Shown in pieces: positions 47,329-63,471 of a DNA stretch of 64,000 nucleotides (the first letter of the stretch is position 1; every line of letters starts with the position of its first letter). The position numbers and the translations under genes were made by a program. The DNA comes from Candidatus Shapirobacteria bacterium. GTDB lineage: Bacteria > Patescibacteriota > Microgenomatia > UBA12405. The DNA lies in assembly GCA_022837635.1 (NCBI GenBank), contig JALHFY010000001.1:96136-160135 (forward strand), written 5' to 3'. The notes below the pieces were generated by a model. That model made no database searches and had not been told where the DNA came from. It saw only the letters and a program-made list of their open reading frames with translations.

Positions 47329-49068
47329 ATGCCTGCCGAATTAAAAAATTATAAAAAACTGTCAGAACTCCTTTTAGATAAGGGGGTGATTACCAAGGCT
47401 CAGGCTGAAGAAATCAGCTTGAAGATGGTCAAGAGTGGTGAAAGTGAAGAGGCGATTATTCGGTCAATGAGATTATTTCCGGAAGAAGATTTCCTGAGAT
47501 ATAAGGCAGAATTCTTAAAAATTCCCTTTGTAGATTTGGATGAGGTTGGTTTTTCACCGGAGGCTTTGTCATTAGTGGCCCAGAGTGTGGCGGAAAAGTA
47601 TCATTTGGTCCCCTATCGCATGGATCCCAAGAACAAAATTCTTGAAGTGGCGATGGCTAATCCTCTGGATTTGGAGACAATCGAATTTTTGGAAAAGAAG
47701 ACTGGTCTGCGGATTAAAGCAGTGATGGCGTTGGAGTCAAAAATTGACGCTTTTATCCAAGAAAAATATGAGAGAGAAAAAGGAATTACCTCCGAGGTGA
47801 GCAAGGCTTTGGATGAAAGAAAGGCTGATGAGGCTAAGATTGAAGAGGAAAGCGCTAAAGCGGTTACAACAGAAGCTCCAATTGCCAAAATTGTGAATAC
47901 GATTTTGGCATACGCAGTTCGTTCTCGGGCTTCTGATGTACATATTGAACCGTTAGAAGAAAATGTTAGAGTTAGATATAGAATTGATGGTATTTTACAG
48001 GAAAAATATGTGTTACCTCGAAATGTGCTGGAGGCGGTGGTTTCCCGGATTAAGATTTTAGCTAACTTAAAAATTGATGAAAAAAGAATCCCTCAAGATG
48101 GACGTTTTAATATCAATGTTGATGGTAATGAAGTGGATTTGCGGGTATCAACTTTACCTGTGTCTTATGGTGAAAAGGTGGTAATGCGCTTACTGCGGAA
48201 ATCTTCAAAGGTGCCGTCTTTACCTGATTTAGGCTTAAGAGGTTTAGCTTTGAAGAATTTGATTGAGTCAATTGAGAGACCACACGGAATTATTATTGTT
48301 TGTGGACCAACAGGTTCAGGTAAAACCACGACCCTCTATTCAATTTTAGACAAGGTGGCGACACCAAAAGTCAATGTAGTTACGATTGAAGATCCGGTGG
48401 AGTATCAAATGAAGGGAGTTAATCAGGTTCAAGTGAATGTCCAAGCAGGTTTAACTTTTGCCTCGGCTTTGAGGTCATTTTTACGGCAGGATCCAAATAT
48501 CATGATGGTAGGAGAAATTCGGGATACAGAAACGGCGGAGCTAGCAATTAATGCGGCTTTAACTGGGCATTTAGTGTTTTCAACTTTACACACCAATGAT
48601 GCAGCGGGAGCACCACCGCGGATGTTGGATATGGGGGTGGAGCCATTTTTGTTAATTTCAGCTTTGACTTGCGTGGTGGCTCAGCGGGTACTGAGGAGAC
48701 TATGCACTGAATGTCGTCAATTTGTAGAAATTGATCCAGGAACATTGAGTGAGCTCAAAGAAACTTTGGGACCGATTTATGGGATGCTTGAAGAGAAGGC
48801 TAAAAAAGAAGGTAAGGTGTTAAAACTGCCTAAGGCAGTAGGGTGTCCAAAATGTAATAATACCGGTTATATGGGGAGAATTGCTATTTATGAAGTAATG
48901 CCGATTACAGAAAAAATTAGTAAAATGATAGTAGAGCATGCGGCGGCATCGGCGATTCAAAAACAGGCAATTGAAGAAGGGATGTTGACCATGAAACAAG
49001 ATGGTTACGTTAAAGTTTTAGAAGGAATTACTACCGTAGATGAAGTGCTACGGGTAGCACAATATTAA
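47329..49068 (+). CDS. pilB: Type IV pilus assembly ATPase PilB (GspE family)
   Basis: GspE N-terminal domain, Walker A GPTGSGKTTTLYS, Asp/His boxes, tetracysteine (CTECRQ...CPKCNNTG). Confidence 0.9.
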   Translation: MPAELKNYKKLSELLLDKGVITKAQAEEISLKMVKSGESEEAIIRSMRLFPEEDFLRYKAEFLKIPFVDLDEVGFSPEALSLVAQSVAEKYHLVPYRMDPKNKILEVAMANPLDLETIEFLEKKTGLRIKAVMALESKIDAFIQEKYEREKGITSEVSKALDERKADEAKIEEESAKAVTTEAPIAKIVNTILAYAVRSRASDVHIEPLEENVRVRYRIDGILQEKYVLPRNVLEAVVSRIKILANLKIDEKRIPQDGRFNINVDGNEVDLRVSTLPVSYGEKVVMRLLRKSSKVPSLPDLGLRGLALKNLIESIERPHGIIIVCGPTGSGKTTTLYSILDKVATPKVNVVTIEDPVEYQMKGVNQVQVNVQAGLTFASALRSFLRQDPNIMMVGEIRDTETAELAINAALTGHLVFSTLHTNDAAGAPPRMLDMGVEPFLLISALTCVVAQRVLRRLCTECRQFVEIDPGTLSELKETLGPIYGMLEEKAKKEGKVLKLPKAVGCPKCNNTGYMGRIAIYEVMPITEKISKMIVEHAAASAIQKQAIEEGMLTMKQDGYVKVLEGITTVDEVLRVAQY

Positions 49069-50133
49069 ATGCATTCAAAAACAGAAGAAATTTGTAAATT
49101 AGCGATTGCTAATGGGGCTTCAGACATTCATTTACAAATGGGTCAAGTACCCAAGATGAGAGTCCATGGTTCACTTATTGATATTGGTACCTTTGGAGTT
49201 ATTGATGATCCGGAGTTAATTTTATCCTTGCTTTCGGAAAAACAAAGAGAAGAATTTATAGTAGAAAAGGAAATGGATTTGTCAGTAACTTTAGATGATT
49301 ACCGCTTTCGGGCTAATGTTTTTCACCAAAAAGGTCAATTAGCCTCTGCCCTGAGAGTGATTGTTGATCAGATTCCGGAACTTGGTAGTTTAGGATTACC
49401 AGAAGTGGTTAAAAGTTTTACCAAGTTAAGACAAGGTTTTGTTTTAGTTACTGGTCCGACAGGTCAAGGAAAATCGACTACTGTGGCTTCAATCTTGAAT
49501 GAAATTAACAAGGAAAACTCGGTAAGTATTGTAACAATTGAGGATCCGATTGAGTATGTGATTAGACCAATTAAATCCTTGGTTTCACAACGTGAATTAG
49601 GGGAAGATACTTTGAGTTTTGATAGGGCCTTAAAATCTTCATTAAGACAGGATCCGAATGTGGTTTTTGTGGGGGAAATGCGAGATTTAGAAACGATACA
49701 GTTGGCTTTGACAGTGGCGGAAACCGGACATTTGGTCTTTTCGACTTTACATACTAATTCAGCAGCTCAGTCGATTGATAGAATTATTGACGTTTTTCCT
49801 GAAGGGAGTAAACCCCAAATTAGAATGCAGTTAGCATCGGTATTGTCGGCAGTAGTGTCACAGCGGTTGATACCGACCACTGATGGTCAGCGAACAGTGG
49901 CAGCTGAAATATTGATAACTAATCCGGCTTTGGCTAACACTATCCGAGAAGGAAAAACTTTTATGATTGATAATATTATTCAAACTGGGGCCGATCAGGG
50001 AATGGTGGGGTTGGAAATGTCACTGGCGAGATTGGTTAAGAGTGGTAAAGTTGAAGAGCGTTTGGCGGCAAGTTTTGCCTTGAGACCGGAAGAATTTCTT
50101 AATAGTTTAAGACTTCTAAAGAAAAATGGCTAA
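49069..50133 (+). CDS. pilT: Type IV pilus retraction ATPase PilT
   Basis: Walker A GPTGQGKSTT. PilT-type core without an N-terminal GspE domain. Confidence 0.85.
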   Translation: MHSKTEEICKLAIANGASDIHLQMGQVPKMRVHGSLIDIGTFGVIDDPELILSLLSEKQREEFIVEKEMDLSVTLDDYRFRANVFHQKGQLASALRVIVDQIPELGSLGLPEVVKSFTKLRQGFVLVTGPTGQGKSTTVASILNEINKENSVSIVTIEDPIEYVIRPIKSLVSQRELGEDTLSFDRALKSSLRQDPNVVFVGEMRDLETIQLALTVAETGHLVFSTLHTNSAAQSIDRIIDVFPEGSKPQIRMQLASVLSAVVSQRLIPTTDGQRTVAAEILITNPALANTIREGKTFMIDNIIQTGADQGMVGLEMSLARLVKSGKVEERLAASFALRPEEFLNSLRLLKKNG

Positions 50134-51340
50134 ATTTATTTATAAAGCCAGGGATTGGAGTGGAAAATTAGTCAAAGGTGAGTTGGATTTACCGAGTCAA
50201 AAAGAAGTAGTGGAGTCAATTAAAGATAGTGGCTTGATTCCTTTGTCAGTGAAAGCCAAATCTGGAGGAATGTTTTCGGAATTAACCAAGGCGCTTAAAG
50301 GTAGAGTTAACTTAAAACAAGTCAGTACTTTTACTCGTCAATTATCAACGATGTTGACGGCCGGATTGGCACTGACGGATGCTTTGGCACTGTTAAAAAA
50401 TCAATATGATGAAGGTAGCGGTTTAGGACAAATTGTAGGTAAGGCTTTGGATGAGGTTCGAGGAGGGATGCCTTTGGGAAAATCACTTTCAGGATCTCAA
50501 AAAGTTTTTGGAGAGGCATATATCGCCTCGATTTCAGCTGGAGAAGAGGCGGGAGTATTGGATGAGGTGATGAGTAAATTGGCTGATACGACGGAGAATC
50601 AAAGTGAGTTTCAGGGTAAGGTCAAAGGAGCGATGATTTATCCGATTATCGTGATTGTGGCCATGATAGTTGTGGCTTTTGTAATGATGATTTTTGTGAT
50701 TCCGAAAATGACGGCTATGTATGCGGATTTTGGAACGGCCCAAATGCCCAAAATTACTCAGGCTTTGATGAGTATTTCCAGTTTTGTGTCTAAGGTGTGG
50801 TTTATGTTTCCTTTAATGGGAGTGATTTTGTTCATGGTTTATAGAGTGGCTATGAAAAGTCAGGATTTTCATATGCGTCGGGATAGATATATTTTGAAAA
50901 TTCCGATTATCGGGGTATTAAACGAAAAATCGGTTTTGGCCAATACTACTAGGACTTTGTCTATGTTGTTAACGGCAGGAATTACTTTAGTGGAGGCCTT
51001 AAAGATTGTAGCGACAGTTTCGGGAAATAAAGTTTATGAAAAAGCTTTTTTGGAAATTGCGGAAAAGGTGCAAAAAGGTTTTTCAGTGGCGGTATCTTTT
51101 GAAAATACCGGTATTTTTCCACCGATTGTTAATCAAATGATTTCGACTGGTGAGGCGACAGGAAAACTGGATGAGGTATTAATGAAAGTTTCAGATTACT
51201 TTACCAAAGAGGCGGAAGAAGCGGTGAAAGCTTTGACGGCGGCGATAGAGCCGTTGATTATGGTAATTTTAGGTATTGGAGTGGGTTTTTTGGTAGTAGC
51301 GGTGATCATGCCTATTTATACCTTGACATCTTCCGTCTAA
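50126..51340 (+). CDS. pilC: Type IV pilus platform protein PilC (GspF family)
   Basis: Two GspF repeats with three TM segments. Confidence 0.85.
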   Translation: MAKFIYKARDWSGKLVKGELDLPSQKEVVESIKDSGLIPLSVKAKSGGMFSELTKALKGRVNLKQVSTFTRQLSTMLTAGLALTDALALLKNQYDEGSGLGQIVGKALDEVRGGMPLGKSLSGSQKVFGEAYIASISAGEEAGVLDEVMSKLADTTENQSEFQGKVKGAMIYPIIVIVAMIVVAFVMMIFVIPKMTAMYADFGTAQMPKITQALMSISSFVSKVWFMFPLMGVILFMVYRVAMKSQDFHMRRDRYILKIPIIGVLNEKSVLANTTRTLSMLLTAGITLVEALKIVATVSGNKVYEKAFLEIAEKVQKGFSVAVSFENTGIFPPIVNQMISTGEATGKLDEVLMKVSDYFTKEAEEAVKALTAAIEPLIMVILGIGVGFLVVAVIMPIYTLTSSV

Positions 51341-51385: not shown

Positions 51386-52018
51386 ATGACAATGAGAAAA
51401 GCTTTTACATTGGTGGAACTATTGATAGTTATCACCTTGATTGCCATATTGTCGGTCGCAGTGTTGGCAACTTTGAATCCTATTGAACAGACCAATAAGG
51501 CTCGCGATGCTCAGTTTAAGAATGATGCGGCGGAAGTCTTGAGTGCTCATGAACGTTACTTTGCCTCCCAGAACGCTTATGCTTGGAATTCTGGCACTGG
51601 TCAAACTGTTGCTGTAGGAGTTGCTGCAGTAATGCCTGGAAATGTTCCTATGTTTGGAGTAGTAGGTAGCAATTGGGATGGTAATGGGGTCGGGTCTACA
51701 GATTCGCCTTTAATCCAGACATCAGAAATTAAAACCTCTTTTCTGAATAAGGCTCCTTTTAGAGAGGAACCTAAACCAATTGATATGTTTTATGCTTATA
51801 CTGATGGAGCGGACACTAATTATGTCTGTTTCTTTCCTAAAGCTAAGGCTAACAGAACTGGAGAGCAAGGAGCCAAGTTAAAATGTATGGATCCGGTTGA
51901 TACTGCAGATGCTCAAATATATTCACAAGGAGTGGGTTGTACATTAGCCACTTCTTGGACAAATGCTGATTTGACACCTCAAAGTGGGATAGCTAATTTG
52001 ATGTGTGTACCGGAATAA
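51386..52018 (+). CDS. Type IV (pseudo)pilin, likely major pilin
   Basis: Class III signal MTMRKA|FTLVELLIVITLIAILSVAV with Glu at +5. First pilin gene, followed by a strong terminator. Confidence 0.75.
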   Translation: MTMRKAFTLVELLIVITLIAILSVAVLATLNPIEQTNKARDAQFKNDAAEVLSAHERYFASQNAYAWNSGTGQTVAVGVAAVMPGNVPMFGVVGSNWDGNGVGSTDSPLIQTSEIKTSFLNKAPFREEPKPIDMFYAYTDGADTNYVCFFPKAKANRTGEQGAKLKCMDPVDTADAQIYSQGVGCTLATSWTNADLTPQSGIANLMCVPE

Positions 52019-52086: not shown

Positions 52087-52839
52087 ATGAATTTAGTTTG
52101 CTTTCTTTTGGGATTGGCGGTGGGGAGTTTTGTCAATATGGCAATATGGCGGGTGGAGCATAGGCAGTCGATTCTTAAAAAACAGCGAAGTTTTTGTGAT
52201 TTTTGTAAAAAGCCACTGAGATTTTATGACAACATTCCCCTACTCTCTTTTTTAGTATATAGAGGAAAAAGCCGATGTTGTGGTAAAAAATTGCCAGGAT
52301 ATTATCCGGTGGTGGAAATGTTGATGGGAATATTGTTTGCTTTAAAATCACCCCCTAGCCCCCTCTTTGAGGAAAGAGGGGGAATTGTGCTCTTAGTTTT
52401 ATGGAGTATATGGGTTTTGTTGGTTTTTGAGGCGGTGTTTGATGTCAAAAAAATGATGATTCCGGATGCGACGGCCATACCTTTAATGGTGTTGGCTGAA
52501 TTAAGGAGAAGATTGTTAGGTTTGCCGGTAAGTGAATGGTGGAGTGCTTTGGGAGCAGGTCTGTTTATCTGGTTATTAACTAAAATTAAAATTAAGGGGA
52601 AGCAAGCAATGGGCGAGGGTGATGCTTTGTTGGCGGTATTTATGGGACTATTTTTGAGTTTTCCTAAAATTATAGTGGCTTTTTATGTGGCTTTTATCAG
52701 CGGGGCGGTGATTGGTTTGATATTAATAGCGAAGAAAAAAAAGAAGCAACTCTCCCCTATTCCCTTTGGCCCCTTTTTAATTTTTGGAACAATAATTGCC
52801 TATTTTTGGGGAGAAAAAATTATTAGTTTATTTTTTTGA
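52087..52839 (+). CDS. pilD: Prepilin peptidase PilD (A24 family)
   Basis: N-terminal Zn-binding CxxC pairs (CDFCKK...CCGKK), polytopic membrane protein with the conserved Asp-containing loop. Contains an in-frame GC-rich repeat insertion (SPPSPLFEERGG). Confidence 0.85.
   Translation: MNLVCFLLGLAVGSFVNMAIWRVEHRQSILKKQRSFCDFCKKPLRFYDNIPLLSFLVYRGKSRCCGKKLPGYYPVVEMLMGILFALKSPPSPLFEERGGIVLLVLWSIWVLLVFEAVFDVKKMMIPDATAIPLMVLAELRRRLLGLPVSEWWSALGAGLFIWLLTKIKIKGKQAMGEGDALLAVFMGLFLSFPKIIVAFYVAFISGAVIGLILIAKKKKKQLSPIPFGPFLIFGTIIAYFWGEKIISLFF
52349..52383 (+). repeat. GC-rich palindromic element (ACCCCCTAGCC-CCCTCTTT-GAGG-AAAGAGGGGG) inside pilD coding sequence
   Basis: Same architecture as the intergenic elements at 44921 and 52031. 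Perfect 10-bp stem, read directly. Confidence 0.7.
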
Positions 52840-52860: not shown

Positions 52861-53406
52861 ATGAAAAAACAGAAAGCAATAAGTTTAGTGGAGATAATAA
52901 TCGTGATAGCGATTTTGATGATTTTACTGGTAATTGCTTTGGGGATATTTAAGCCAGCGGCAATGGTTAATCGGGCTCAAGATGCCGAAAGAAAGGCAGA
53001 TTTGGATAGAATTAAAATTGCTTTTGAGGATTATTACAACGACAAAGGATGTTATCCAAATTACAACGAATATTTACATAAAATGTTTGATGAAGCTTAT
53101 TGTGATAAGGATTTTTTTAAGCCTTGGATGAACAAGTGGCCTTGTGATCCTGACGGTAAGCCCTATCCGATAATTGTGGGGGTTGGAAGTGAGACTGAAA
53201 TTTGTCCAAAGTTTTTTAAGATTATGGCTAAGTTGGAAAATAAAGGTGATCCTCATCTTTATAATCAAGGACCGATAGAGGAGGAGTTTGCCAACGTCGC
53301 CAACTACTCAGTTTCCAGTCCTAATTATCCAAATATTCCACCAACGATAATTGTGGATGCGACCAGTACTCCAATGTTGACCGATATCAGAACTCAAGGG
53401 GGCTAA
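52861..53406 (+). CDS. Type IV pilin-like protein (minor pilin 1)
   Basis: MKKQKA|ISLVEIIIVIAILMILLV class III signal with Glu at +5. Confidence 0.65.
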   Translation: MKKQKAISLVEIIIVIAILMILLVIALGIFKPAAMVNRAQDAERKADLDRIKIAFEDYYNDKGCYPNYNEYLHKMFDEAYCDKDFFKPWMNKWPCDPDGKPYPIIVGVGSETEICPKFFKIMAKLENKGDPHLYNQGPIEEEFANVANYSVSSPNYPNIPPTIIVDATSTPMLTDIRTQGG

Positions 53407-53408
53407 GT

Positions 53409-53930
53409 ATGATATCTTTAATTATGAAGAGAGCTTTCACTTTGGTAGAACTGTTAGTAGTGATAGCAATTATGGGAATTTTGACGACGATTGCGGTTGG
53501 ACAATTTCAGACTGCTAAAAGAAAGGCCAATGATGTGGCTCGTAAAGGTGATTTGGATGCTGTTTCCAAAGCTTTGCAACTTTATTATGCGGATTATAAG
53601 AGGTTTCCGGAGGCGACCAGTGATGGAAGAATGGTGATTGGGACGGGGACAACTGTGGAATGGGGTGATGAGTTTGTGGATGAGGGTTATATTTATATGA
53701 AAAAAATGCCTCAAGAGAATGTGGTGAGTTCCCCTCAGTATTGTTATAAGAGCAGTGCTGACGGTAAAAATTATGCTCTTTTTGCTAAATTGGAAAATAA
53801 AGAAGATAAGCAGTGTAAATTAGATGAAAATAAAAAAATGACCTATGATTGTGGAGGGATAACTGATAATTATTGTTTTGTTTATCTCAGTCCCAACGTG
53901 GAGGTAGATAGTGATGGAAATTTTATCTAA
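53409..53930 (+). CDS. Type IV pilin-like protein (minor pilin 2)
   Basis: ...MKRA|FTLVELLVVIAIMGILTTIAV. Alternative start at 53424. Confidence 0.7.
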   Translation: MISLIMKRAFTLVELLVVIAIMGILTTIAVGQFQTAKRKANDVARKGDLDAVSKALQLYYADYKRFPEATSDGRMVIGTGTTVEWGDEFVDEGYIYMKKMPQENVVSSPQYCYKSSADGKNYALFAKLENKEDKQCKLDENKKMTYDCGGITDNYCFVYLSPNVEVDSDGNFI

Positions 53931-53931
53931 T

Positions 53932-54324
53932 ATGAAAAAAGCTTTTACTTTAATTGAATTATTGGTAGTGATTTCGATTATTGGTGTTTTGACGGCGATA
54001 GTGGTGCCTAATTTTATGGGAGCCAGAGAAAGGGCTAGTGATAGCCAGAGAAAACAAGATATGGTGTCGATTAAAAATGCTTTGAGGACTTACTATAATG
54101 ACAATCAAAGATATCCGAGTATGGCCACTTGGACAGATGATATAGAAGACTATATTCCTTCAATTAAGGATTTTAGTGATTACAGTTATGTTTTAGTCAA
54201 TAGCGATGCTTTTACCTTGGGAGCGGAAATGGAGGCGACACGAGAACAGGAAATTAAGGATAGTCAAGACAGGTGTGGAATTACTGATGATAATGATACA
54301 AAATATTATGTATGTGCTAATTAA
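53932..54324 (+). CDS. Type IV pilin-like protein (minor pilin 3)
   Basis: MKKA|FTLIELLVVISIIGVLTAIVV. Start chosen after the upstream stop at 53930. Confidence 0.7.
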   Translation: MKKAFTLIELLVVISIIGVLTAIVVPNFMGARERASDSQRKQDMVSIKNALRTYYNDNQRYPSMATWTDDIEDYIPSIKDFSDYSYVLVNSDAFTLGAEMEATREQEIKDSQDRCGITDDNDTKYYVCAN

Positions 54325-54362
54325 AAATTAAAGCAATAAGTAAAATTACAAAATATAAATTT

Positions 54363-54770
54363 ATGAAGAAAGCGTTTACCCTTTTTGAACTATTGGTAGT
54401 GATTTCAATTATTGGGATTTTGATTGCGGTGGCGTCAATATCTTATAGTGGGGCTCAAAAAAAGTCTCGGGATGCTAGAAGGATTCAGGATATGAATGCG
54501 ATCCAGAAAGCAGCGGAGATGTATTACAGTCAGAACAATTATCTTTATCCAGGTAGCAGTCAATTGATTAGTTCAGGTTTGATGTCGGTGATGCCGACAG
54601 ATCCAAAGAATGCTTCTCCTTATGTTTATAGTTTTTCAGGGTTGACGAATGGGGCTAGTAATTATTGTCTTTGTGCCCTGTTGGAAAATGCTACAGGAGG
54701 TAATGCCAGTGATGGTAATTGCACTATGGCAAGTTCTGGTACTTATTATTGTGTTAGAAATCAACAATGA
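54363..54770 (+). CDS. Type IV pilin-like protein (minor pilin 4)
   Basis: MKKA|FTLFELLVVISIIGILIAVA. Confidence 0.7.
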   Translation: MKKAFTLFELLVVISIIGILIAVASISYSGAQKKSRDARRIQDMNAIQKAAEMYYSQNNYLYPGSSQLISSGLMSVMPTDPKNASPYVYSFSGLTNGASNYCLCALLENATGGNASDGNCTMASSGTYYCVRNQQ

Positions 54771-56060: not shown

Positions 56061-56557
56061 AAAGGGCTTTTACTTTGATTGAAATTGTGGTGATGGTGGC
56101 TATTTTGGGGTTGATTATGACGATGTTGTCTGGATCTTTAGGAATTTCTTTTAAGCTTAAAAATTCAACTGAAACTAATGAGAAATTGACCAGTAAAGCT
56201 AATTTTGTTTTTAATGAATTGAAAAAAAATATTTTAGAGGCTAAACCGGAAACGATAGTTTGTAGTGGTGGTAATCAACTGCGTTACACGGCGACTAATG
56301 GTAAAGAGATTGTTTTAAGCTGTGATATAGTTGGAAGCCAGATTGCTTCCAGGTCAGCGACAACAGGAGAGGTTTTTTATTTATTAGATAAGGAAGTTTC
56401 ACCTAATAATTGCAGTAATTTTGTTACTTGTCATTTGAGAACAGGAAGTAGTGTGGTGGAGTCGGTAGATGTGGTTTTGGATTTAAGGACAGTAGTGGGG
56501 GCTGAGGGAGTGGGTAGTAGTGGTCGTTTTTACCAAACAATTTCGCCACGTCTCTAA
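56057..56557 (+). CDS. Type IV pilin-like protein (minor pilin 8)
   Basis: MKRA|FTLIEIVVMVAILGLIMTML. Confidence 0.7.
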   Translation: MKRAFTLIEIVVMVAILGLIMTMLSGSLGISFKLKNSTETNEKLTSKANFVFNELKKNILEAKPETIVCSGGNQLRYTATNGKEIVLSCDIVGSQIASRSATTGEVFYLLDKEVSPNNCSNFVTCHLRTGSSVVESVDVVLDLRTVVGAEGVGSSGRFYQTISPRL

Positions 56558-56603: not shown

Positions 56604-57779
56604 ATGACACCTGAAAAAGTTCCGATTCGGGCTACTAAAGCAGAAGTAGTCCCTAAAAATTCTCAAAAATATTTGAGAAAGTGGTTTAATGGTTTGGTGG
56701 CTGGGATGATTGTTGGTGGCCATCTTACTGCCTGTATGCCTACTGAAGCTCGATCTGTAATTCCCACAGATACTGATAGAGTGGTGGCTACTTCAACTTA
56801 CCTCCCTCCTCAAAAAACACTAGAATCATCCACTCCCACTCTCGCCCAAACCACCTCTACCACCGTTGAAGCTCAGGTTACAACCACCACTGCCACCCCA
56901 GAATCAATAGTTGACCCCGATATTGAAGCCGTTGATGAGGTATTGGCTGAACAAATTAGGAATTCTATGCCCTCAATGTGGGTTTACGATCGAGAACAAA
57001 AACAATTTGTAATTAGATCCAACGATGACTTTGTTTTTTCAATTTACAAAAGAACTACTTTAAGAATTACTAATAGCAATGGCGAAGAAATTGGTTATGC
57101 TAGATATTTTAACAAGAATCGTCCAGACAGCGATGCTTCTGAATACTTTTCTCTTACCGATAAATCAGAAAATACCATAATTCCTTTCAAACTCTACTCA
57201 CAGATGGGTGAGTTTAAAACCGACAATTTAACAACCATTGGGAAATACAACACTAAACAATGTCTATTTGCTTTCACTAATGATTTACATGTAGTTAAGT
57301 ATAATTTTCAGTTTCCACAAATTAATATGGACTGGACAAATAAATATGCTTCTGACACGCTTGATATAGTGAATGGAGACGAATTGGTTCAAGCAGGTAT
57401 TGTTAGAACTGTCTCTATAATCAAATCAGAAAGCGAAGAAAAGATATACGAAGATTTAAAAAATAATATTCCAGTTATTGTGAATATAGGTGAAAAAGAA
57501 TGGGTGGTTAACAAAGGTATTAATTATATTTGGGATGACTCTCGGGATAGAGATTATGAAGTTATTGATGGTCACTTGATTTTATTCAACGGAGTTGCTG
57601 ATGATCAAAATGCTTGTATGTCTCTTCAATGGGATGAAGCTTTTCCAGCATTAATACTTTGGGAACATTACGAAAAACGGTTCCCAGAAATTACAAGGAT
57701 ATATGACGTTGTTACTCAACCTTTTATTGATTTGAGTACAATTAGAACCCCAGTAATCAGTTTTCTTCGAGAAAAATAA
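56604..57779 (+). CDS. Hypothetical lipoprotein within pilus locus
   Basis: Signal peptide ending in lipobox LTAC (KWFNGLVAGMIVGGHLTAC), T-rich linker, globular C-terminus. Confidence 0.4.
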   Translation: MTPEKVPIRATKAEVVPKNSQKYLRKWFNGLVAGMIVGGHLTACMPTEARSVIPTDTDRVVATSTYLPPQKTLESSTPTLAQTTSTTVEAQVTTTTATPESIVDPDIEAVDEVLAEQIRNSMPSMWVYDREQKQFVIRSNDDFVFSIYKRTTLRITNSNGEEIGYARYFNKNRPDSDASEYFSLTDKSENTIIPFKLYSQMGEFKTDNLTTIGKYNTKQCLFAFTNDLHVVKYNFQFPQINMDWTNKYASDTLDIVNGDELVQAGIVRTVSIIKSESEEKIYEDLKNNIPVIVNIGEKEWVVNKGINYIWDDSRDRDYEVIDGHLILFNGVADDQNACMSLQWDEAFPALILWEHYEKRFPEITRIYDVVTQPFIDLSTIRTPVISFLREK

Positions 57780-57826
57780 TATAGTTCCTTTACTTAAGAC
57801 ATCTTTGTCTTGTATAATCTTTAAGT

Positions 57827-58342
57827 ATGAGAATAAGGTTAGTGCGCGTATTGATACTTCTTAATCTCTTTCTCCTGGTAGGAATAGTTTTTCTGCCAAA
57901 TATTACCAAAATAAAGCCTAAACCAGCTACATCACTAGGTTTTTTATGGGTAAACAGGTTTAAATTAGCTATGGATTTACGTAATGTTTCTAAAGTATTT
58001 AATAAAACAAATACTAATCGCAATAATTTTTTTAAACATATTGGTGAGGATCTTAAATTTGCCGAGCTGGATAATCAAGGCATTAGAATGGGTGAAACTG
58101 GAATTACATATAAATGTGAAAGATACAGTGATACCAGTCGCGTCATTATTTCACTTGACAAAAACAAGATAAACCATGACAAAAGTTTATTAGCTAAAAG
58201 AATTTATCTTACCTTGCTTGAATGTAAACTAAGCAAAGTTAACTTAACTGATAGTTCTATTCAACAAGATGAAAGTATAATCAATTACATAATCAATCTT
58301 GTTCTTAAACAGAATAAATTAAGTCCAATTGTCATTTTCTAA
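57827..58342 (+). CDS. Hypothetical membrane-anchored protein within pilus locus
   Basis: N-terminal TM (LVRVLILLNLFLLVGIVFL). No recognisable domain. Confidence 0.35.
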   Translation: MRIRLVRVLILLNLFLLVGIVFLPNITKIKPKPATSLGFLWVNRFKLAMDLRNVSKVFNKTNTNRNNFFKHIGEDLKFAELDNQGIRMGETGITYKCERYSDTSRVIISLDKNKINHDKSLLAKRIYLTLLECKLSKVNLTDSSIQQDESIINYIINLVLKQNKLSPIVIF

Positions 58343-58344
58343 TT

Positions 58345-60333
58345 ATGAAGCGAATAATAACGACTCTTTTTGCTTTCGGACTATTTCTGAATGTAAATAT
58401 AACCAAAACTAATGCTGCTTGTACAGGTACATGCACAACTTGTGATTCTCTTTACAATATATATAGATGTCAATATACAGGAATTCCTTGTACAGGACCA
58501 GGAAGTTATTGCTCAGGAGGCGGTCAGTGCTTATACCAAGGATTAGGTTGTGATGGTAAGGACACTTGTTCTTGTGATACCATTACCTCAACTTGTGGTT
58601 GTACTGGTGGATGTAAACCTGGACAAGTTTATTATAGTGATACCTGTGAATATAGTTGTACTCCTAACTGTAGCTGCGCTAATAATCTCTGTAGTACTCA
58701 AACTTGTCCCAATGGTTGCGGTGGTACTTGTATTGGCCGGGTTACTTATGACTGTAGCTGTGCAAACAATTTATGTTCTGATCAGACTTGTCAAGGCTCT
58801 TGTGGTACCTGTACTGGTCAACTCAATTGTCCTCTGACCACCCTAACCACCTTTGAAATTAGGCGAGCTTCAGACTGGTCTTATACGGATCGAAACGATG
58901 GTGGTAAAGACATTACCGATGATCAAAATCGTCTCCATATTTGCGATCCTTACTTAAGTATTCAAGCTTCTCAACCCAGAAGTGTCATCTATGTTGCCTG
59001 GTTATCAAACACTCTCGGTTGTGACAATATTGATCCCGATTCAGTTAAGATGAGATGGTTGGGTAATAGTCAAGAAATTTCTATGAGCAAACTAACTGAT
59101 CATCAAAATCATCCTCACTGTGGCTATTCTGCCACTGTGACTTATCTTGATACTGTTAACATTCCTGATCCGGCCACCTTTCAAATCACTATGAAGAGTA
59201 TTCAAGGTAATAAGGTTACTCCTTGGACCAACGTTATTCCTGCCCTAAGACTTAAAGTCTGGGATTGTAATCTCTCGGTCACTGGTAACTTCTATGATTC
59301 CTCAGGTCAGACAATCTGTAGTTCAAATGCCTTTAATGACAGTCTACCCTCAAACTTAGTTGAAAATCTAAGTTACTATTCTTCATCCGGCAGTGCTGGG
59401 ATGAGTCTTGGGGCTAATAGCTACAATGGGACTATTCGTTGGGGGAGAAGCTACAATCCAGTCTTTAACAATGGTCTTTATCCTGCTAATCCTTATGGTT
59501 CTCTCCCAGTCACCTCTCATTGGACCAGAATCAATAACAGTAGTAGTTGTCTCACTGGTTCTACTATCACTACCTCTCAAGTTGATCCCTATGTCACCTC
59601 TCCCTCTCTGGATGTTGATTTTTCCTTTACTCGTATCATGGAGCCTTGGTATCAGGTGGTGGGGTCGGGAGTGAAGACTAGAGGTACCTTGACCAGTGGT
59701 GTGCCGGTGACGGCCAGTTTTGCGTACCTAACTCGAGGTACCTCTTCAGGTGGCTTTACAGAAATGCATGTACCCAATAATGGCGGGGTCTTTTTTAATG
59801 ACAGTTTTAATCGTAATGCCTATTATCCCAGTACTCCGCCTTATGGTTCACCAAATAACTGGTACAAGCAAAGAAAACTGGGTTTAGCCTCTATCTATGA
59901 TTATAATTACTTTTACAATCATCTCTACTTGAAACAAGGTGTTGGTACTACTGGAACTAGTTGGAATCAAAGACCAGAGTCAGGCCCCTTCTTTGTCAAT
60001 GGTGACTTAACTATTAATGCCAATAACCAAGCCTTTACCGGTCAACCTCTCTTAACCATTGTTAAAGGTAACTTAGAGATTGATCAAAACGTAACCACTC
60101 TTCATGGTCTCTTTGTCGTCAATGGTAATATTGGTATCGGTGGTAGCAATACCACTGCCCTTAATATTCATGGTTCAGTCTATGCTCGAGGTGATATCCG
60201 AGCCTCTCGTTCTCTAGTTCCTAAAATCAATAACAATACTTCTCCCTCAGTTATCTACAACTATCAACCCTCATATGTGTTAAATTTACCTATGGAAGTT
60301 GTTAGAGTTTTATCTGGATGGAGGATGGAATGA
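58345..60333 (+). CDS. Large secreted Cys-rich protein (candidate pilus-associated adhesin)
   Basis: Signal peptide. About 40 Cys in the first 170 aa with tandem CSCANNLCS(T/D)QTC repeats. Large beta-rich C-terminus (...FVVNGNIGIGGSNTTALNIHGSVYARGDI). Lies between the minor pilins and pilX/M/N/O. Confidence 0.45.
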   Translation: MKRIITTLFAFGLFLNVNITKTNAACTGTCTTCDSLYNIYRCQYTGIPCTGPGSYCSGGGQCLYQGLGCDGKDTCSCDTITSTCGCTGGCKPGQVYYSDTCEYSCTPNCSCANNLCSTQTCPNGCGGTCIGRVTYDCSCANNLCSDQTCQGSCGTCTGQLNCPLTTLTTFEIRRASDWSYTDRNDGGKDITDDQNRLHICDPYLSIQASQPRSVIYVAWLSNTLGCDNIDPDSVKMRWLGNSQEISMSKLTDHQNHPHCGYSATVTYLDTVNIPDPATFQITMKSIQGNKVTPWTNVIPALRLKVWDCNLSVTGNFYDSSGQTICSSNAFNDSLPSNLVENLSYYSSSGSAGMSLGANSYNGTIRWGRSYNPVFNNGLYPANPYGSLPVTSHWTRINNSSSCLTGSTITTSQVDPYVTSPSLDVDFSFTRIMEPWYQVVGSGVKTRGTLTSGVPVTASFAYLTRGTSSGGFTEMHVPNNGGVFFNDSFNRNAYYPSTPPYGSPNNWYKQRKLGLASIYDYNYFYNHLYLKQGVGTTGTSWNQRPESGPFFVNGDLTINANNQAFTGQPLLTIVKGNLEIDQNVTTLHGLFVVNGNIGIGGSNTTALNIHGSVYARGDIRASRSLVPKINNNTSPSVIYNYQPSYVLNLPMEVVRVLSGWRME

Positions 60334-61091
60334 AAAAAAGAAAGGCGCAAGTAGCCATTATTGCTCTGTTGATTTCAGCACTGGTGATGACAGTGGGTTT
60401 GACTTTGTCAAGGAAAACCACCATTGAGACTAGGTTAGATACTAATGAAGAGGCTCTTCGTGACGCTTTTAATGCGGCTGAGTCGGGAATAGATTATTAT
60501 CTAAAAACAGGGACAACTGCTTATACGGTGCCTGATTTAAGTGCCAAGGCGGATGTTAGTGTAAAAAATTTAGGGGGTGAAGCGACGTTGAATTTTGGGG
60601 AATATACCCCTGAGGGAGGTAGTGAATTTTATTGGTTGACTAATCGCAATAGTGATGGAAGTTTAGGGACAAGTTATTATTCTGGCAATCAGATTACAGT
60701 GGCTCATGGGGGAATGAACGGATCTTTGGCGATTAATATTTTTTACAGAAGTGGAAGCGGTTTTGGAGTGAGACGTTGGGGTTATAACTTTAGTAGTGAC
60801 AGTAATCGCCAAGTTTCAGGCTTTACTGCGGCTACCGGAGCGCAAAATGTAACTATTACTTCTTTACCTTCTTCGCCGGTTTTAATGACGGTGACACCGA
60901 TTTTTACTGGGGCTAATCTGTCGATTACTGGTAATAATAATTTTCCTGCCCAAGGTGAGGAAATCAGTTCTTTGGGAAAAGTAGGTGAGGTTAATACTAC
61001 TCAAGCCAATAAAAAAGTAGTGATACAAAGACGCTATAAATTGCCGACTTTCTGGTTGGATGCCTTGGTGGCTGAAGGAAATATTGAGTAA
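60330..61091 (+). CDS. PilX_N-domain protein (pilus assembly / minor component)
   Basis: KAQVAIIALLISALVMTVGLTLSRKTTIETRLDTNEEALRDAFNAAESGIDYY matches the PilX N-terminal pattern (hydrophobic helix + ..NE..R..AFqAAEaal). Confidence 0.55.
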   Translation: MKKRKAQVAIIALLISALVMTVGLTLSRKTTIETRLDTNEEALRDAFNAAESGIDYYLKTGTTAYTVPDLSAKADVSVKNLGGEATLNFGEYTPEGGSEFYWLTNRNSDGSLGTSYYSGNQITVAHGGMNGSLAINIFYRSGSGFGVRRWGYNFSSDSNRQVSGFTAATGAQNVTITSLPSSPVLMTVTPIFTGANLSITGNNNFPAQGEEISSLGKVGEVNTTQANKKVVIQRRYKLPTFWLDALVAEGNIE

Positions 61092-61118: not shown

Positions 61119-62147
61119 ATGAGTCAGATGATAGGGGTGGATATTGGCCTCAAAAGCATCAAAGTAGTAATTTTGGATAAAAATCAGGAGAATTATGTGT
61201 TGACAGGAATTGGAGAGGTTGCCAGTCCGGGAACTGATTGGATTAGTTCTCAGACCACATCAAAAAATATTGAGGAAGTTTCTCGATCTATTAAAGTTTT
61301 GCTTAAGGACCTTAAGGTAACGACTAAATTGGCTAGTACAGCTTTACCGGAACATGAAACTGTTTCCCGTTTGGTGTCTTTACCCCCTCTTAAAGAGACG
61401 GAGATTAGGGATGCACTTCGTTTTGAGGCAGAAACCTTTGTCCCCTACCCTCTCGATCAGGTATCAATTGATTATGAAGTGGTTGATGAAGATCAGGCGG
61501 GACGTTTGAGTGTTTTTACCATTGCGGCTAAGAATGATTTGATTGCTAATTTTGTCAAGATTTTTAGAGGTGCTGGTTTGGATTTGGTGGCAATTGAGTC
61601 ACCGGCAGTGGCGATGAAAAGATTATTGAGACAGATGGGGGTTTCCACCGAAGCTTCCATGGTGGTGGATATTGGTGAGAAATTTTCAAATATTATTACT
61701 TTAAGAAAGGATAATATTTATTTTTCCAGATCAATGCCGGTGGGAGGAGAGTCGTTGACGCGAGCAATTTCTGTTAATTTGGGATTGGATATGGCTAGCG
61801 CTGAGGAATATAAGAGAGCTTATGGTATCAGAGAGATGGAACTTGAGGGAAAAATCAAAAATGCGATTATGCCAGTTTTTAACAGCATGGCTGAAGAAAT
61901 CAGAAAAGCTATGGCTCTGTTTGCGGAAAATGGTGAGCAAAAAATTCAGTTGTTGATTTTATCCGGTGGAGGTTCCAAGATGCCGGGTATGGCTGAAGAA
62001 TTAACTAGAATTTTAGGAATTGAAGTGCAAGTAGTACAACCTTTTTTGAAAATTGATGCTACCAAGATTGTAGCTCCGATTGATTTGAATGCTGATGGTT
62101 ATCGTTTTGCGACTGCAGTTGGGTTGGCAATGAGGGAGGGGGCATGA
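61119..62147 (+). CDS. pilM: Type IV pilus assembly protein PilM (actin-like ATPase fold)
   Basis: IGVDIGLKSIKVVILD N-terminus and actin/FtsA-like fold motifs. Confidence 0.8.
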   Translation: MSQMIGVDIGLKSIKVVILDKNQENYVLTGIGEVASPGTDWISSQTTSKNIEEVSRSIKVLLKDLKVTTKLASTALPEHETVSRLVSLPPLKETEIRDALRFEAETFVPYPLDQVSIDYEVVDEDQAGRLSVFTIAAKNDLIANFVKIFRGAGLDLVAIESPAVAMKRLLRQMGVSTEASMVVDIGEKFSNIITLRKDNIYFSRSMPVGGESLTRAISVNLGLDMASAEEYKRAYGIREMELEGKIKNAIMPVFNSMAEEIRKAMALFAENGEQKIQLLILSGGGSKMPGMAEELTRILGIEVQVVQPFLKIDATKIVAPIDLNADGYRFATAVGLAMREGA

Positions 62148-62698
62148 AATTAGGTAGTAGTGCTAATTTGAATTTACTGCCAAGTCAGGCCAAATTCCAG
62201 GCTGATCGGATGAATTTACAGGCTAAATTAAGGCACTATATTTTAGTAGCTGTGGTTATTTGGTTGAGTTTGGGGATATTAACCTTGGCTTTGAATATAA
62301 CTTTTGATTTGAGATTAAAACAAGCGGAACGAAGATATCAACAAAGCTTGGAGGCTTTGAAAAGTATGGATCAGGAAATTGCTTTGAGTCAGTTGATTAA
62401 ATATCGGATTAAGGTTTTGGGAGAAGTGCTTAAAGAAAGGTTTGAATATTCAACGGCTTTTGAAACTATAACTAATTTGTTTGCCGAAAAAGCCTCTTTA
62501 GGCAAATTCAATATGGACGAAAATAAGAAATTTGAAATTGAAGTTTTGGCCAGTGATAAGGAAAGTTTGGATTATATTGAAGATCGGGTAAAAAGGATAA
62601 ATCAAGGAGAGGTTCCGGGAGTTAAAAATGTGACCATGAAGCAGGCAGTAGCGGAGGCTGAGCAATGGTCGGTAACAATGGAGGTAGACTTAGAATGA
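62144..62698 (+). CDS. pilN: PilN-like pilus assembly protein
   Basis: LNLLPSQAKFQADRMNLQ followed by a single TM and coiled coil, as in PilN. Confidence 0.7.
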   Translation: MKLGSSANLNLLPSQAKFQADRMNLQAKLRHYILVAVVIWLSLGILTLALNITFDLRLKQAERRYQQSLEALKSMDQEIALSQLIKYRIKVLGEVLKERFEYSTAFETITNLFAEKASLGKFNMDENKKFEIEVLASDKESLDYIEDRVKRINQGEVPGVKNVTMKQAVAEAEQWSVTMEVDLE

Positions 62699-63471
62699 AA
62701 TTAGATTTTAAGTTAGACTTAAAATTACCGGATAAGCTGTTTGGGCAGGATTCCAGATTAATTGTAGTTTGGATTGAACCTTTAGTGGTTGGATTAATTA
62801 TTTTAATGACGACTTTGGGATTAATTGTGCCTAAAATATCTTTGTTAGCTGAAAAGAATGATCAGGTGAAAGCGGTTGAAAATAAGGGCAGAGAGGCAAA
62901 TGAAAAAATAGCTTATTTACAAGCCATGGATAGCGAGGAGGTCAAAGGCAATACTGACAAGCTTGGTCAGGGATTATTGCCTCAAAGAAGTGCTTACTTG
63001 TTGTTGGGTGTAGTTAGACAGGTTTCAGGACAATTGGATTATTACATTGATGATTTTATGATTGCAATGATGGGTGATGCTAAACAACTTGAAGGTGAGG
63101 CACTAGATAAAAAGAGTCGTTTTGATATGTTGCCGATAAAAATGACTTTGATGGGGCCAAAAGAGAAATATGTTGATTTGATTAAGGCTTTGGAGAGAAC
63201 TTTGCCGATTATATCGATTGATAGTGTAGAAATGAAATCAACACTAGGTTCAGATGTGGCGAAGGTGGATTTGAATATGTCGGCTTATTATTTACCGGAA
63301 ATGAATGTGCCTAATGTGGAAAAATTAAATTTGGCGGATTTAACTCCCAATAAACAGGAATTAGATTTAATGGCTCAATTGGAAACATATCAGACCTTAG
63401 ACGTGGAAACATTAGAGACTGACAAGGTTTTCGTAGAATATCAAAGAGAAGATCCTTTCTTTATTCCTTGA
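62695..63471 (+). CDS. pilO: PilO-like pilus assembly protein
   Basis: Single TM after a short N-terminus, coiled coil, alpha/beta C-terminus. Follows pilM-pilN. Start at the ATGA overlap with the pilN stop. Confidence 0.6.
   Translation: MKLDFKLDLKLPDKLFGQDSRLIVVWIEPLVVGLIILMTTLGLIVPKISLLAEKNDQVKAVENKGREANEKIAYLQAMDSEEVKGNTDKLGQGLLPQRSAYLLLGVVRQVSGQLDYYIDDFMIAMMGDAKQLEGEALDKKSRFDMLPIKMTLMGPKEKYVDLIKALERTLPIISIDSVEMKSTLGSDVAKVDLNMSAYYLPEMNVPNVEKLNLADLTPNKQELDLMAQLETYQTLDVETLETDKVFVEYQREDPFFIP

Follow-up and report, generated by a model that had tools for sequence, protein, structure and literature searches.

Pili of CPR/Patescibacteria, as described for locus 1 of Nanosynbacter lyticus TM7x (PMC11623550), in a CPR-wide survey (PMC6744442) and for Microgenomates Ch65 (PMC7143001), are encoded by a single locus that combines PilB, PilT, PilC, PilD, PilM, PilN and PilO with several pilins bearing PilD-type signal peptides, and they are thought to serve host attachment, motility or DNA uptake. 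Absence of the PilQ secretin has already been described for CPR bacteria (PMC6744442; PMC7143001); the residue preceding the cleavage site (position -1) goes unmentioned in these three papers, and a literature search joining Patescibacteria, pilin, prepilin peptidase and alanine yielded no paper. The locus studied here, from the tiny bacterium Candidatus Shapirobacteria (Microgenomates/CPR), lies on the + strand at 47329-63471 of the window, i.e. the 64-kb stretch of DNA that was covered by our analysis of this genome. It follows the same plan, likewise without PilQ, but differs from the described CPR systems in having ten pilin-like genes in one operon, nine of them with Ala at -1, and a PilD that carries Glu115 and lacks the Lys after the GxGD motif. 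The Com pilus of S. pneumoniae is also a monoderm type IV filament with a PilD-processed major pilin carrying Ala(-1): ComGC is cleaved after Ala15 and its new N-terminus is N-methylated, as determined by mass spectrometry (PMC3694846). The comG operon, however, has five pilins only and lacks PilT and PilM/N/O, whereas the window has both and is type IVa-like. The Gram-negative type IVa pilus of P. aeruginosa (FimU-PilVWX-PilY1) and the T2S pseudopilus (GspG-K) share with the window the core machine, a bifunctional PilD containing two Asp and four Cys, and four minor pilins resembling H, I, J and K, the last of which has no Glu5; a large non-pilin protein gene stands among the minor pilins of the window, as does PilY1 in P. 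aeruginosa. Unlike the window, these systems have Gly at -1 (PMC3584216; PMC4471445), a secretin and an outer-membrane part. Some of the archaeal peptidases PibD, FlaK and EppA tolerate non-Gly residues near the cleavage site, PibD being called flexible, but, in contrast to the PilD of the window, these enzymes have no methyltransferase domain with four Cys, and a GxHyD motif is found in many of them (PMC4307647).

ORFs and Pfam matches bore out the gene order of the original prediction: PilB, PilT, PilC, major pilin, PilD, eight further pilins, three unknown proteins, a PilX-like protein and PilM/N/O. Family profile searches gave zero secretin matches among the ORFs of the locus, as anticipated there for a monoderm-type locus without pilQ; this is a complete secretin-less type IV pilus locus of that type. 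The extension ATPase PilB (47329..49068; 579 aa; T2SSE, E=9.4e-133; MshEN N-domain, E=6e-17) is 98% identical to its orthologue in locus L001 and is followed by a PilT-type retraction ATPase (49069..50133; 354 aa; T2SSE, E=8.7e-46, without the MshEN N-domain), whose gene is flanked by pilB and pilC in every relative, and by the platform protein PilC (50126..51340; 404 aa; two T2SSF matches, E=2.5e-60). At the distal end, PilM (61119..62147; 342 aa; PilM_2, E=4.3e-53) precedes a 184-aa protein with one membrane helix (62144..62698) that has zero family matches in Pfam and NCBIfam and is probably PilN-like, judging from its position after pilM and its L001 orthologues. The last gene encodes a PilO/GspM-like protein of 268 aa (62665..63471; T2SSM_b, 21.8 bits, cutoff 21.7) in a conserved position. 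The locus type itself is ordinary. The eight tandem pilins behind PilD (52861-56557), a number that had been taken as high for a small genome, are not unusual in this group either, as some 60 species loci of Shapirobacteria-like type conserve the operon of major pilin, PilD and eight pilins. The novelty lies in how Ala(-1) is distributed among the pilins.

Reading of the codons confirmed Ala at -1 in eight of nine pilins (GCT six times, GCA and GCG once each) and Gly in one; in all nine, Glu at +5 is followed by a hydrophobic stretch. The major pilin (51386..52018; 210 aa; N_methyl, 26.2 bits, cutoff 21.2) begins MTMRK-A/FTLVELLIVITLIAIL, the slash marking the cleavage site, with GCT at 51401. 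Behind PilD, pilin 2 (52861..53406; 181 aa; MKKQK-A/ISLVE, GCA at 52876) and pilin 3 (53409..53930; 173 aa; MISLIMKR-A/FTLVE, GCT at 53433) match both N_methyl and T2SSG. Pilin 4 (53914..54324; 136 aa; N_methyl, 30.5 bits; MEILSNMKK-A/FTLIE, GCT at 53941) is given here from ATG 53914, the ORF opening at GTG 53911; independent assemblies also call a 136-aa gene. N_methyl matches were likewise found for pilin 5 (54363..54770; 135 aa; MKK-A/FTLFE, GCG at 54372), pilin 6 (54767..55138; 123 aa; MRK-A/FTLIE, GCT at 54776) and pilin 7 (55159..55656; MKR-A/FTLIE, GCT at 55168). The latter is GspH/ComGD-like by weak, sub-threshold NCBIfam matches and likely starts at GTG 55159, where relatives have Met, its ORF opening at TTG 55135. 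Pilin 8 (55656..56060; 134 aa), GspI/PilV/ComGE-like by weak sub-threshold NCBIfam matches to ComGE, GspI and PilV, reads MKK-G/QALIE (GGT at 55665) and is the sole substrate that keeps Gly. Pilin 9 (56057..56557; 166 aa; MKR-A/FTLIE, GCT at 56066) is GspJ/ComGF-like, with a sub-cutoff N_methyl score of 18.1 bits and a weak ComGF match. The PilX_N-like (GspK/PilX-like) protein (60318..61091; 257 aa; PilX_N, 22.5 bits, below the cutoff of 25.5), which lacks Glu5, reads KKRK-A/QVAIIALL with its Ala codon at 60345, and Gly-type orthologues read G/QVA; it is likely a tenth PilD substrate, which would bring the count to nine Ala in ten precursors. Single Ala pilins are also seen beside ordinary PilDs, at ~4-5% among the pilins of 139 such loci; because this survey background amounts to 19 Ala versus 394 Gly, eight of nine far exceeds chance. 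The view that Ala(-1) is unusual for bacterial PilD substrates accordingly holds in so far as the residue is uncommon; it is not foreign, given ComGC (PMC3694846) and a 2023 review that names Gly or Ala as the final residue of prepilin leader peptides (PMC10191384).

In a slot-by-slot orthologue table the nine pilins read, in order, AAAAAAAGA in the window, AAAAAAAGA in L001 and AAAAAAAAA in L065. The Ala reading thus stands against the proviso that relatives might uniformly carry Gly, as L001 and L065 are the closest ones. Across the three species-level genomes of the window's group, 25 of 27 pilin slots are Ala, and the PilX-like protein of L001 reads A/Q as in the window. In eleven loci with a PilD 53-58% identical to that of the window, each major pilin that was recovered has Ala and the minor pilins are mixed, with Gly, Ala and even Ser side by side under one PilD each. 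About 55 loci whose PilD falls below 49% identity are nearly all Gly; extra loci L168-L172 showed the same pattern. Taken together, loci with an E115-type PilD hold 78 Ala versus 38 Gly, and their major pilin is Ala in every case where it was recovered. The mature N-terminus of the window's major pilin is almost identical to those of Gly-type orthologues such as the one in L014 (G/FTLVELLIVIALIAIL), differing at -1 and at one further residue. Orthologues of pilin 2 have Gly in mixed and Gly-type loci, and those of pilin 8 read G/Q in most loci and A/Q in L065, L004, L006, L003 and L010. A second group (L021, L037, L016) has two to three Ala pilins per locus next to a PilD with Ser115 and an intact Lys181. 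Gly is thus ancestral in each of the pilin slots and Ala(-1) a derived, lineage-specific state; in one subclade the major pilin changed first and the minor pilins later, one at a time.

PilD (52087..52839; 250 aa; A24_N_bact, E=6e-26; Peptidase_A24, E=3e-12), a prepilin peptidase and N-methyltransferase, has the catalytic residues D119 and D179 (GEGD) and four Cys (C37/C40/C64/C65). Each of 161 PilDs compared has D119 and D179, whereas D127 varies. An archaeal origin is unsupported for this standard bacterial two-domain GxGD enzyme, whose closest relatives are all Patescibacteria PilDs. Two of its residues are derived, namely E115 (nt 52429-52431) and L181 (nt 52627-52629). The AF2 model (pLDDT 83.9) places E115 and D119 on helix 98-122 and D179 and L181 on helix 177-190, with Glu115 one helical turn ahead of the catalytic Asp119. 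Throughout the Ala subclade, PilD has Glu115 and is without the Lys that usually follows GxGD (position 181). Glu115 occurs in 16/16 clade loci and in 77/120 of the closest database PilDs (Asp in one more), never together with Lys181 in either set. Loss of Lys181 alone goes with Gly, as in the sister grade L014, L015 and L165-L167 (1 Ala versus 28 Gly) and in the independent lineages L173-L175 (zero Ala), and is not predictive of Ala. An altered substrate pocket, as suggested in the original prediction, is thus plausible for the Ala clade in that Glu115 and the Lys loss are clade-wide; the association of Glu115 with Ala could nevertheless be coincidence, because one clade represents one evolutionary event, and the Lys loss by itself occurs without Ala. 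A second peptidase may be encoded elsewhere in the genome, beyond the 64 kb.

Most likely, enzyme and substrates co-evolved, such that PilD came to accept, and probably to prefer, Ala at P1, with the substrates following suit. PilD would cut ten class III signal peptides behind a small residue, Ala in nine of them; polymerisation of the major pilin by PilB, PilC and PilM/N/O would proceed on a priming complex in which pil7, pil8, pil9 and the PilX-like protein act as the H/I/J/K-like minor pilins, and PilT would retract the fibre. Starting from an ancestor with Gly in all slots, PilD would have lost its usual Lys after GxGD before the Ala switch and gained Glu115, possibly the cause of the changed preference, as the major pilin turned to Ala in one subclade; the minor pilins would then have followed singly by separate GGN-to-GCN substitutions, until hardly any Gly was left in the window's group. 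As ComGC of S. pneumoniae is cleaved and methylated with Ala(-1), we counted it in favor of functional Ala(-1) processing here. For the account as a whole, a functional secretin-less type IVa-like pilus with Ala(-1) derived through co-evolution with PilD, we consider the chances evenly balanced. Against it count the mixed loci, where a single PilD serves Gly, Ala and even Ser precursors, and the Ala pilins that accompany ordinary PilDs or, in L021, L037 and L016, a PilD with Ser115 and Lys181. A lineage of this kind may help to reveal how the processing enzyme picks its cleavage site.

Neutral drift, with prepilin peptidases tolerating both of the smallest residues at -1, a PilD of unaltered preference, a relaxed constraint on Gly, Ala by chance and the changes at Glu115 and Lys181 as unrelated hitch-hikers, is a serious contender, to which we assign somewhat under an even chance. 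The leaders ending in either residue, the normal processing of Ala-bearing ComGC, the coexistence of Gly, Ala and Ser in mixed loci and the sporadic Ala beside ordinary PilDs would all be in line with it, as would the mosaic of pilin 8 (Gly in the window, Ala in L065 and several mixed loci) and the poor predictive value of the Lys loss. Drift would, however, leave unexplained why the end states resemble attractors, with ~95% Gly in most lineages versus 25/27 Ala plus an Ala in the PilX-like protein in the window's group, and why E115-type loci show zero reversions of the major pilin where it was recovered. Drift alone would likewise hardly produce nine or ten parallel substitutions in the absence of gene conversion, and their direction opposes the G enrichment of the strand. 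Mutation bias as the cause was rejected on the same grounds, since each GGN-to-GCN change costs a G on a coding strand that is strongly enriched in this base (skew +0.3).

We regard it as unlikely that Ala(-1) was selected to tune processing and not to suit a changed pocket, for instance through slower cleavage that would regulate the pool of prepilins or the minor-to-major pilin stoichiometry. Strom and Lory are said to have found in 1991 that a Gly-to-Ala change in P. aeruginosa PilA lowers cleavage without abolishing it, and the Gly-keeping pilin 8 (GspI/PilV-like), a predicted subunit of the tip complex, could need different kinetics. Yet it was the major pilin, needed in bulk, that switched first, and pilin 8 carries Ala in L065 and in a number of mixed loci. 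Concerted evolution, in which gene conversion between the similar 5' ends of the tandem paralogues would have spread a single Gly-to-Ala mutation, has very little probability left. The first ~25 pilin codons are indeed similar and the genes stand in tandem on one strand, but over 84 nt around the cleavage site the pilin 5' ends of the window resemble their L001/L065 orthologues (0.76-0.95) more than their paralogues in the window (0.42-0.71), so that the Ala codons arose separately and no gene conversion was seen in this comparison; the use of three Ala codons and the slot-by-slot mosaics in relatives argue against it as well. Sequencing error, a wrong frame or wrong starts, all raised in the original prediction, can be dismissed almost entirely and have no point in their favor, because each Ala codon abuts the Phe/Ile codon in frame, so that no alternative start gives Gly there, because four independent assemblies, each from another SRA run, match the window at 100% identity from pilC to pil6, Ala codons included, and because two further species-level genomes are in the same state.

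Three proteins are encoded between pilin 9 and the PilX-like protein. X3 (58345..60333; 662 aa), a secreted protein whose N-terminal part is rich in Cys and whose C-terminal part (residues ~300-660) is conserved and beta-rich, has zero matches in Pfam or NCBIfam and falls into a family of 18 proteins, all unannotated. Its AF2 model is poor (pLDDT 58) and gave zero significant matches in the PDB; neither Pfam profiles nor this comparison detected any similarity to PilY1. In about 18 loci an X3-like gene immediately precedes the one for the PilX-like protein, but L001 and L020 have none; by gene position X3 is a candidate for a putative pilus-tip-associated protein. X1 (56604..57779; 391 aa, one predicted membrane helix) and X2 (57827..58342; 171 aa) are specific to the window, with zero family matches in Pfam and NCBIfam and zero homologues among 80 related loci. 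X1 sits inside a block where the GC skew collapses.

Ala occupies position –1, the last leader residue, in eight of the nine pilins encoded by the pilus locus at 47329–63471 on the + strand (six GCT codons, one GCA and one GCG), which bears out the original prediction; the ninth pilin, pil8, keeps Gly (MKK-G/QALIE, the slash marking the cleavage bond). All nine display the features of class III signals, namely a short basic leader, Glu at +5 and a hydrophobic stretch of about 20 residues, the leaders being very short and mostly of the form M-(K or R)-(K or R)-A. Seven of the pilins scored above the N_methyl cutoff and pil9 just below it, and no N_methyl match was obtained for pil8. The PilX-like protein encoded further downstream lacks Glu5, as is the case for GspK/PilX-type proteins, and begins with KKRKA/QVAIIALL; since its orthologues elsewhere read G/QVA, it is, judging from sequence, a likely tenth PilD substrate that would carry Ala as well. 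Nine of the ten substrates would then end their leader in Ala and one in Gly, which fits the Gly-or-Ala leader rule (PMC10191384).

Although uncommon, Ala at –1 has precedents. An older review described the position as invariably Gly except in archaea (PMC4471445), and Gly or Ala is given as the leader end in a Gram-positive survey (PMC3244431) and in a 2023 review (PMC10191384). For S. pneumoniae ComGC, cleavage after Ala15 along with N-methylation was determined by mass spectrometry (PMC3694846). Our literature search returned no report of Ala(–1) in Patescibacteria pilins. Across loci with an ordinary PilD, the –1 residue was Ala in 19 pilins, Gly in 394 and another residue in 9 (combined sample of 139 loci); a metagenome scan, in which the matches listed were mostly distant PilDs and not further members of the clade discussed below, served as a background sample only. 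A few pilins carry Ser at –1 (S/FTLIE, S/FGLIE), at about 13799 in locus L004, about 14814 in L172 and within 12132–14229 in L175, these loci belonging both to the Ala clade and to a distant Patescibacteria lineage whose PilD reads GVGDIW. Because such Ser(–1) pilins occur, some of these PilDs appear, from the leader sequences, to accept Gly, Ala and Ser.

The genes surrounding the pilins form a single cluster of co-directional ORFs with the composition of a type IV pilus locus. PilB, the extension ATPase, was recognized by T2SSE (E = 9e-133, 442.8 bits) and an N-terminal MshEN domain (61.8 bits); it is followed by a 354-aa T2SSE protein in which this domain is missing, a retraction ATPase of the PilT type (PilT or PilU), and by the platform protein PilC (T2SSF, two repeats, 202 bits). 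The gene of the major pilin (210 aa) adjoins that of the two-domain prepilin peptidase PilD (52087–52839; Pfam A24_N_bact plus Peptidase_A24), 3' of which lie the eight further pilins pil2 to pil9, recognized by pilin family matches or the leader motif. Three ORFs without family match, X1 to X3 (56604–60333), separate pil9 from the gene of the PilX-like protein (Pfam PilX_N). The remainder consists of PilM (PilM_2, 180.9 bits), a PilO-like small membrane protein that scored 21.8 bits for T2SSM_b relative to a cutoff of 21.7, and a PilN-like small membrane protein placed by position only, without Pfam or NCBIfam match. The anticipated secretin-less, monoderm-type organization was confirmed, inasmuch as none of the 20 ORFs of the locus gave a Pfam secretin (PilQ) match; nor did the six ORFs scanned among the 12 with 400 aa or more in the rest of the 64-kb window, five of which are housekeeping genes (gyrA, gyrB, ligA, dnaX, cysS) and one of which lacks a family match. 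CPR pilus loci without PilQ have already been described (PMC6744442; PMC7143001; PMC11623550).

The locus differs from the monoderm ComG competence pilus, whose comGA-GG operon encodes one ATPase and lacks PilT and PilM/N/O, in having PilT and PilM, and its ComGD/E/F matches are weak and below threshold. Type II secretion systems comprise the secretin GspD, GspC/L/M and the pseudopilins GspG-K; here a secretin is lacking, the T2SSG matches of pil2 to pil4 are weak (21–24 bits), and the presence of PilT and PilM_2 points to a pilus rather than a secretion system. Weak sub-threshold matches of the H/I/J/K type suggest, at the level of sequence, that pil7, pil8, pil9 and the PilX-like protein may be counterparts of the minor pilins that prime assembly elsewhere. 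For comparison, we collected 80 species-representative loci around PilD homologues and assigned each of their pilins by best match to one of nine slots, slot 1 being the window's major pilin and slots 2–9 its pil2 to pil9. The major pilin, PilD and the eight pilins recur in the same architecture in about 60 of the 80 loci; the count of eight tandem pilins in the original prediction was therefore correct, but the large set, there rated high for a small genome, is the norm of the group and not a peculiarity of this genome. Neither the type of locus nor the existence of Ala(–1) is new, and we are not dealing with a new kind of system; what is new is that Gly has given way to Ala step by step and almost completely over ten substrates, together with unusual residues beside the catalytic Asp residues of PilD.

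This replacement can be followed across the related loci. Candidatus Shapirobacteria bacterium UBA1420 (locus L001) has the PilD most similar to the window's (92% identity), the next relatives being other Shapirobacteria and Woesebacteria (Microgenomates, CPR). Loci whose PilD shares less than 49% identity with the window's hold Gly in essentially every slot. In eleven loci with PilD at 53–58% identity, every major pilin recovered has Ala and the minor ones form a mosaic, for instance AGAAAGA-A, AGAGAGG-G or AGGGAAG-G for the nine slots in order (a dash marking a pilin not recovered). The window's own group has almost completed the switch, reading AAAAAAAGA in the window and L001 and AAAAAAAAA in L065. 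Five more loci found by exact protein look-up fit the overall pattern. Thus, relatives are not uniformly of the Gly type, a case that would have spoken against the original prediction: L001, L065 and the loci with Glu115 in PilD (see below) carry Ala. The –1 residue aside, major pilins of Gly-type and Ala-type genomes hardly differ in their mature N-terminus.

Turning to the enzyme, Asp119 and Asp179 (the latter in GEGD, which conforms to the GxGD motif) were invariant in all 161 PilDs aligned, as expected of A24 peptidases, while Asp127 of the 'PD' motif is replaced by Asn, Thr, Ser or Gly in 19 of them, which identifies 119 and 179 as the catalytic pair and rules out Asp127 as the first catalytic Asp. 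The methyltransferase domain (A24_N_bact, 90.7 bits) retains the invariant C37, C40, C64 and C65. This numbering refers to a 250-aa form starting at 52087; the public annotation (P0001, 233 aa) begins at Met18, and a conserved N-terminal helix (GLxVGSFxNM) upstream of this residue makes the longer form the better model. Two residues past Asp179, position 181 is Lys in 139 of the 161 PilDs; members of the Ala clade have Leu or Phe instead, the residue of the window being Leu. In a second survey, of Patescibacteria PilDs near a distant Lys-lacking example, Lys181 was present in 93 of 117, and about 15% lacked a basic residue here. GxGD-x-K is near-invariant in these surveys without being a formal family criterion; the window's PilD lacks it but stays in the A24 family, because other Patescibacteria PilDs are devoid of the Lys as well. 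Position 115 is Ser in other Shapirobacteria and Glu in 16 of 16 loci of the clade; among the 120 closest database PilDs, 77 have Glu115 and one more has Asp, and in neither set was Glu115 ever found together with Lys181. In the AlphaFold model (pLDDT 83.9), residues 115 and 119 lie four residues apart in one helix (98–122), and 179 and 181 share helix 177–190. A PDB sequence search with PilD gave chance matches only, and Foldseek searches with the AF2 model nothing significant (top match the presenilin homologue PSH, E = 1.7). Recognition and cutting by prepilin peptidases have been described as poorly understood, with the structure of a bacterial PilD not yet solved (PMC10191384).

Which of these residues accompanies Ala? 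Phe128 is ruled out as a specificity residue, since position 128 varies widely outside Shapirobacteria; moreover, the major pilin of L168 has Ala despite the Phe128 of its PilD. A first pooled contrast of Lys181-lacking versus other PilDs yielded 66 Ala and 34 Gly versus 19 and 402, a signal stemming mostly from one clade; the Lys-lacking loci outside this clade, when pooled, gave 4 Ala and 21 Gly versus 19 and 394 in ordinary loci, which is a weak difference (p = 0.035). In the sister grade with Ser115 but without the Lys (L014, L015, L165–L167), 1 Ala was counted to 28 Gly, and three independent Lys-lacking lineages are without Ala (5 Gly in L173; 7 Gly in L174; 3 Gly and 2 Ser in L175). This rules out Lys181 loss as the determinant: it came first and is not sufficient for Ala. 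Glu115, on the other hand, coincides exactly with the switch of the major pilin, which has Ala in every E115-type locus where it was recovered (78 Ala to 38 Gly over all pilins of these loci), but because this reflects a single evolutionary event, the link is not separable from shared ancestry. Two or three Ala pilins each in L021, L037 and L016, next to a PilD with Ser115 and Lys181, are evidence against either residue as a strict determinant. Of the altered PilD pocket in the original prediction, the unusual residues beside the catalytic Asp residues stand, but they trace back to one event and loss of the Lys is not predictive.

The reading we favor, to which we would give an even chance, is co-evolution of enzyme and substrates: a PilD with remodelled surroundings of the active site would accept, and probably prefer, Ala, and its substrates would then have followed. 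A stricter version, a natural P1 specificity switch from Gly to Ala in which Glu115, a helical turn ahead of Asp119 and on a Lys-lacking background, reshaped the S1 pocket and all ten substrates co-evolved, appears doubtful to us. The main rival supposes neutral drift, with an enzyme to which any very small residue at –1 is acceptable; it has a realistic chance of being correct, although we think it will rather turn out wrong. Mixed Gly/Ala loci and the Ser(–1) cases speak for drift; the near-fixation of Ala in the window's group and the lack of major-pilin reversion in E115-type loci where this pilin was recovered argue against it. The change also runs contrary to strand composition: each GGN-to-GCN change costs a strongly G-rich coding strand one G (skew about +0.3), so that mutation bias is no explanation. 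As a minor alternative, Ala(–1) might tune the processing rate. An artefact is excluded, as the Ala codon directly precedes the +1 codon (Phe) in frame, leaving no alternative start or frame that would yield the Gly that a misassigned start might have hidden, and four sequencing runs, each assembled independently, yielded contigs with 100% identity to the window from pilC to pil6. Gene conversion among paralogues is likewise excluded: pilin 5' regions share 0.76–0.95 identity with orthologues of other species versus 0.42–0.71 with paralogues of the same genome, so the Ala codons represent separate substitutions.

If the change is neutral, it is only a lineage curiosity within an otherwise standard CPR pilus locus. 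The related loci constitute a natural series in which the same ten substrates pass from all Gly via mixtures to almost all Ala, while PilD changes in a few places next to its catalytic residues, providing 115 and 181 as concrete, testable residues. Should the specificity switch prove true, the all-Gly, mixed and all-Ala Shapirobacteria would provide the first map of PilD residues governing cleavage-site choice. The near-complete replacement combined with the unusual PilD residues merits a biochemical test. Pili are thought central to host attachment by CPR bacteria. There is also a bearing on annotation, as motif-based pilin finders that expect Gly, e.g., models named after GFxxxE, score Ala-type pilins weakly.

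Another observation concerns the X1-X2-X3 block. Nothing lies between pil9 and the PilX-like gene in L001 and L020 (gaps of 46 and 23 bp), and most other loci have 3.6–5.6 kb there, including an X3-like gene with a conserved C-terminal part of about 360 residues; none of the 80 related loci contains a homologue of X1 or X2. X3 carries a signal peptide, is rich in Cys in its N-terminal part and gave no Pfam or NCBIfam match; it belongs to a family of 18 proteins, all unannotated. Its AF2 model is poor (pLDDT 58) and gave no significant Foldseek match (best, an S. sanguinis pili protein, E = 2.9e-3, TM 0.16); by position, X3 is a candidate tip-associated adhesin. Over exactly this block (56500–60300), GC skew falls from about +0.3 to about 0, recovering at the PilX-like gene. 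This drop, the absence from L001 and the lack of X1/X2 homologues in the 80 loci suggest that the pilus operon harbors a cassette of recent acquisition or rapid turnover, with a possible contribution of amino-acid composition to the drop. The window as a whole (1–64000, most strongly 1–32000) shows a very strong excess of G over C on the + strand (skew +0.25 to +0.5 in 2-kb windows), and cumulative skew climbs monotonically across it. A similar strand disparity has been described for Microgenomates of order UBA1400 (PMC7143001).

Several minor observations relate to the surroundings of the locus and to its relatives. Upstream it is flanked by holB, a DUF559 gene and a Fic gene and downstream by a KH-domain gene, the order holB-pilB being kept in relatives. 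The endonuclease-like DUF559 gene (46261–46683, +) lies between the Fic gene and holB, which follow each other directly in L170, L171 and L172; it looks like a small window-specific insertion. Among divergent Patescibacteria PilDs (L073, L069, L074, L173–L175), several lack the 'PD' Asp (127) and the Lys after GxGD, and in some Pfam finds only the N-terminal domain; the group seems to allow unusual plasticity in the peptidase domain. In L174, a distant Patescibacteria pilus locus, the genes of the major pilin and PilD are separated by one for a 681-aa TMEM260/PMT_2-like glycosyltransferase (7959–10004), a candidate for pilin O-glycosylation that the window lacks. Finally, GC-rich palindromes, of which none was found in the window, occur in several relatives within the leader-coding part of pilin genes, immediately ahead of the –1 codon (L021 at 10843, 11595, 12112, 12570 and 13044; L010 at 11539 and 13438; L171 at 11547; L170 at 12387, 12904 and 14343), examples being GGTTCCCGCG..CGCGGGAAT and GCCTGCCGGCAGGC. 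They extend the leader, as in MKKKWMGSRVRGNN preceding AFTL, and may be small mobile hairpins, tolerated as the leader gets cleaved off, or translational regulators.
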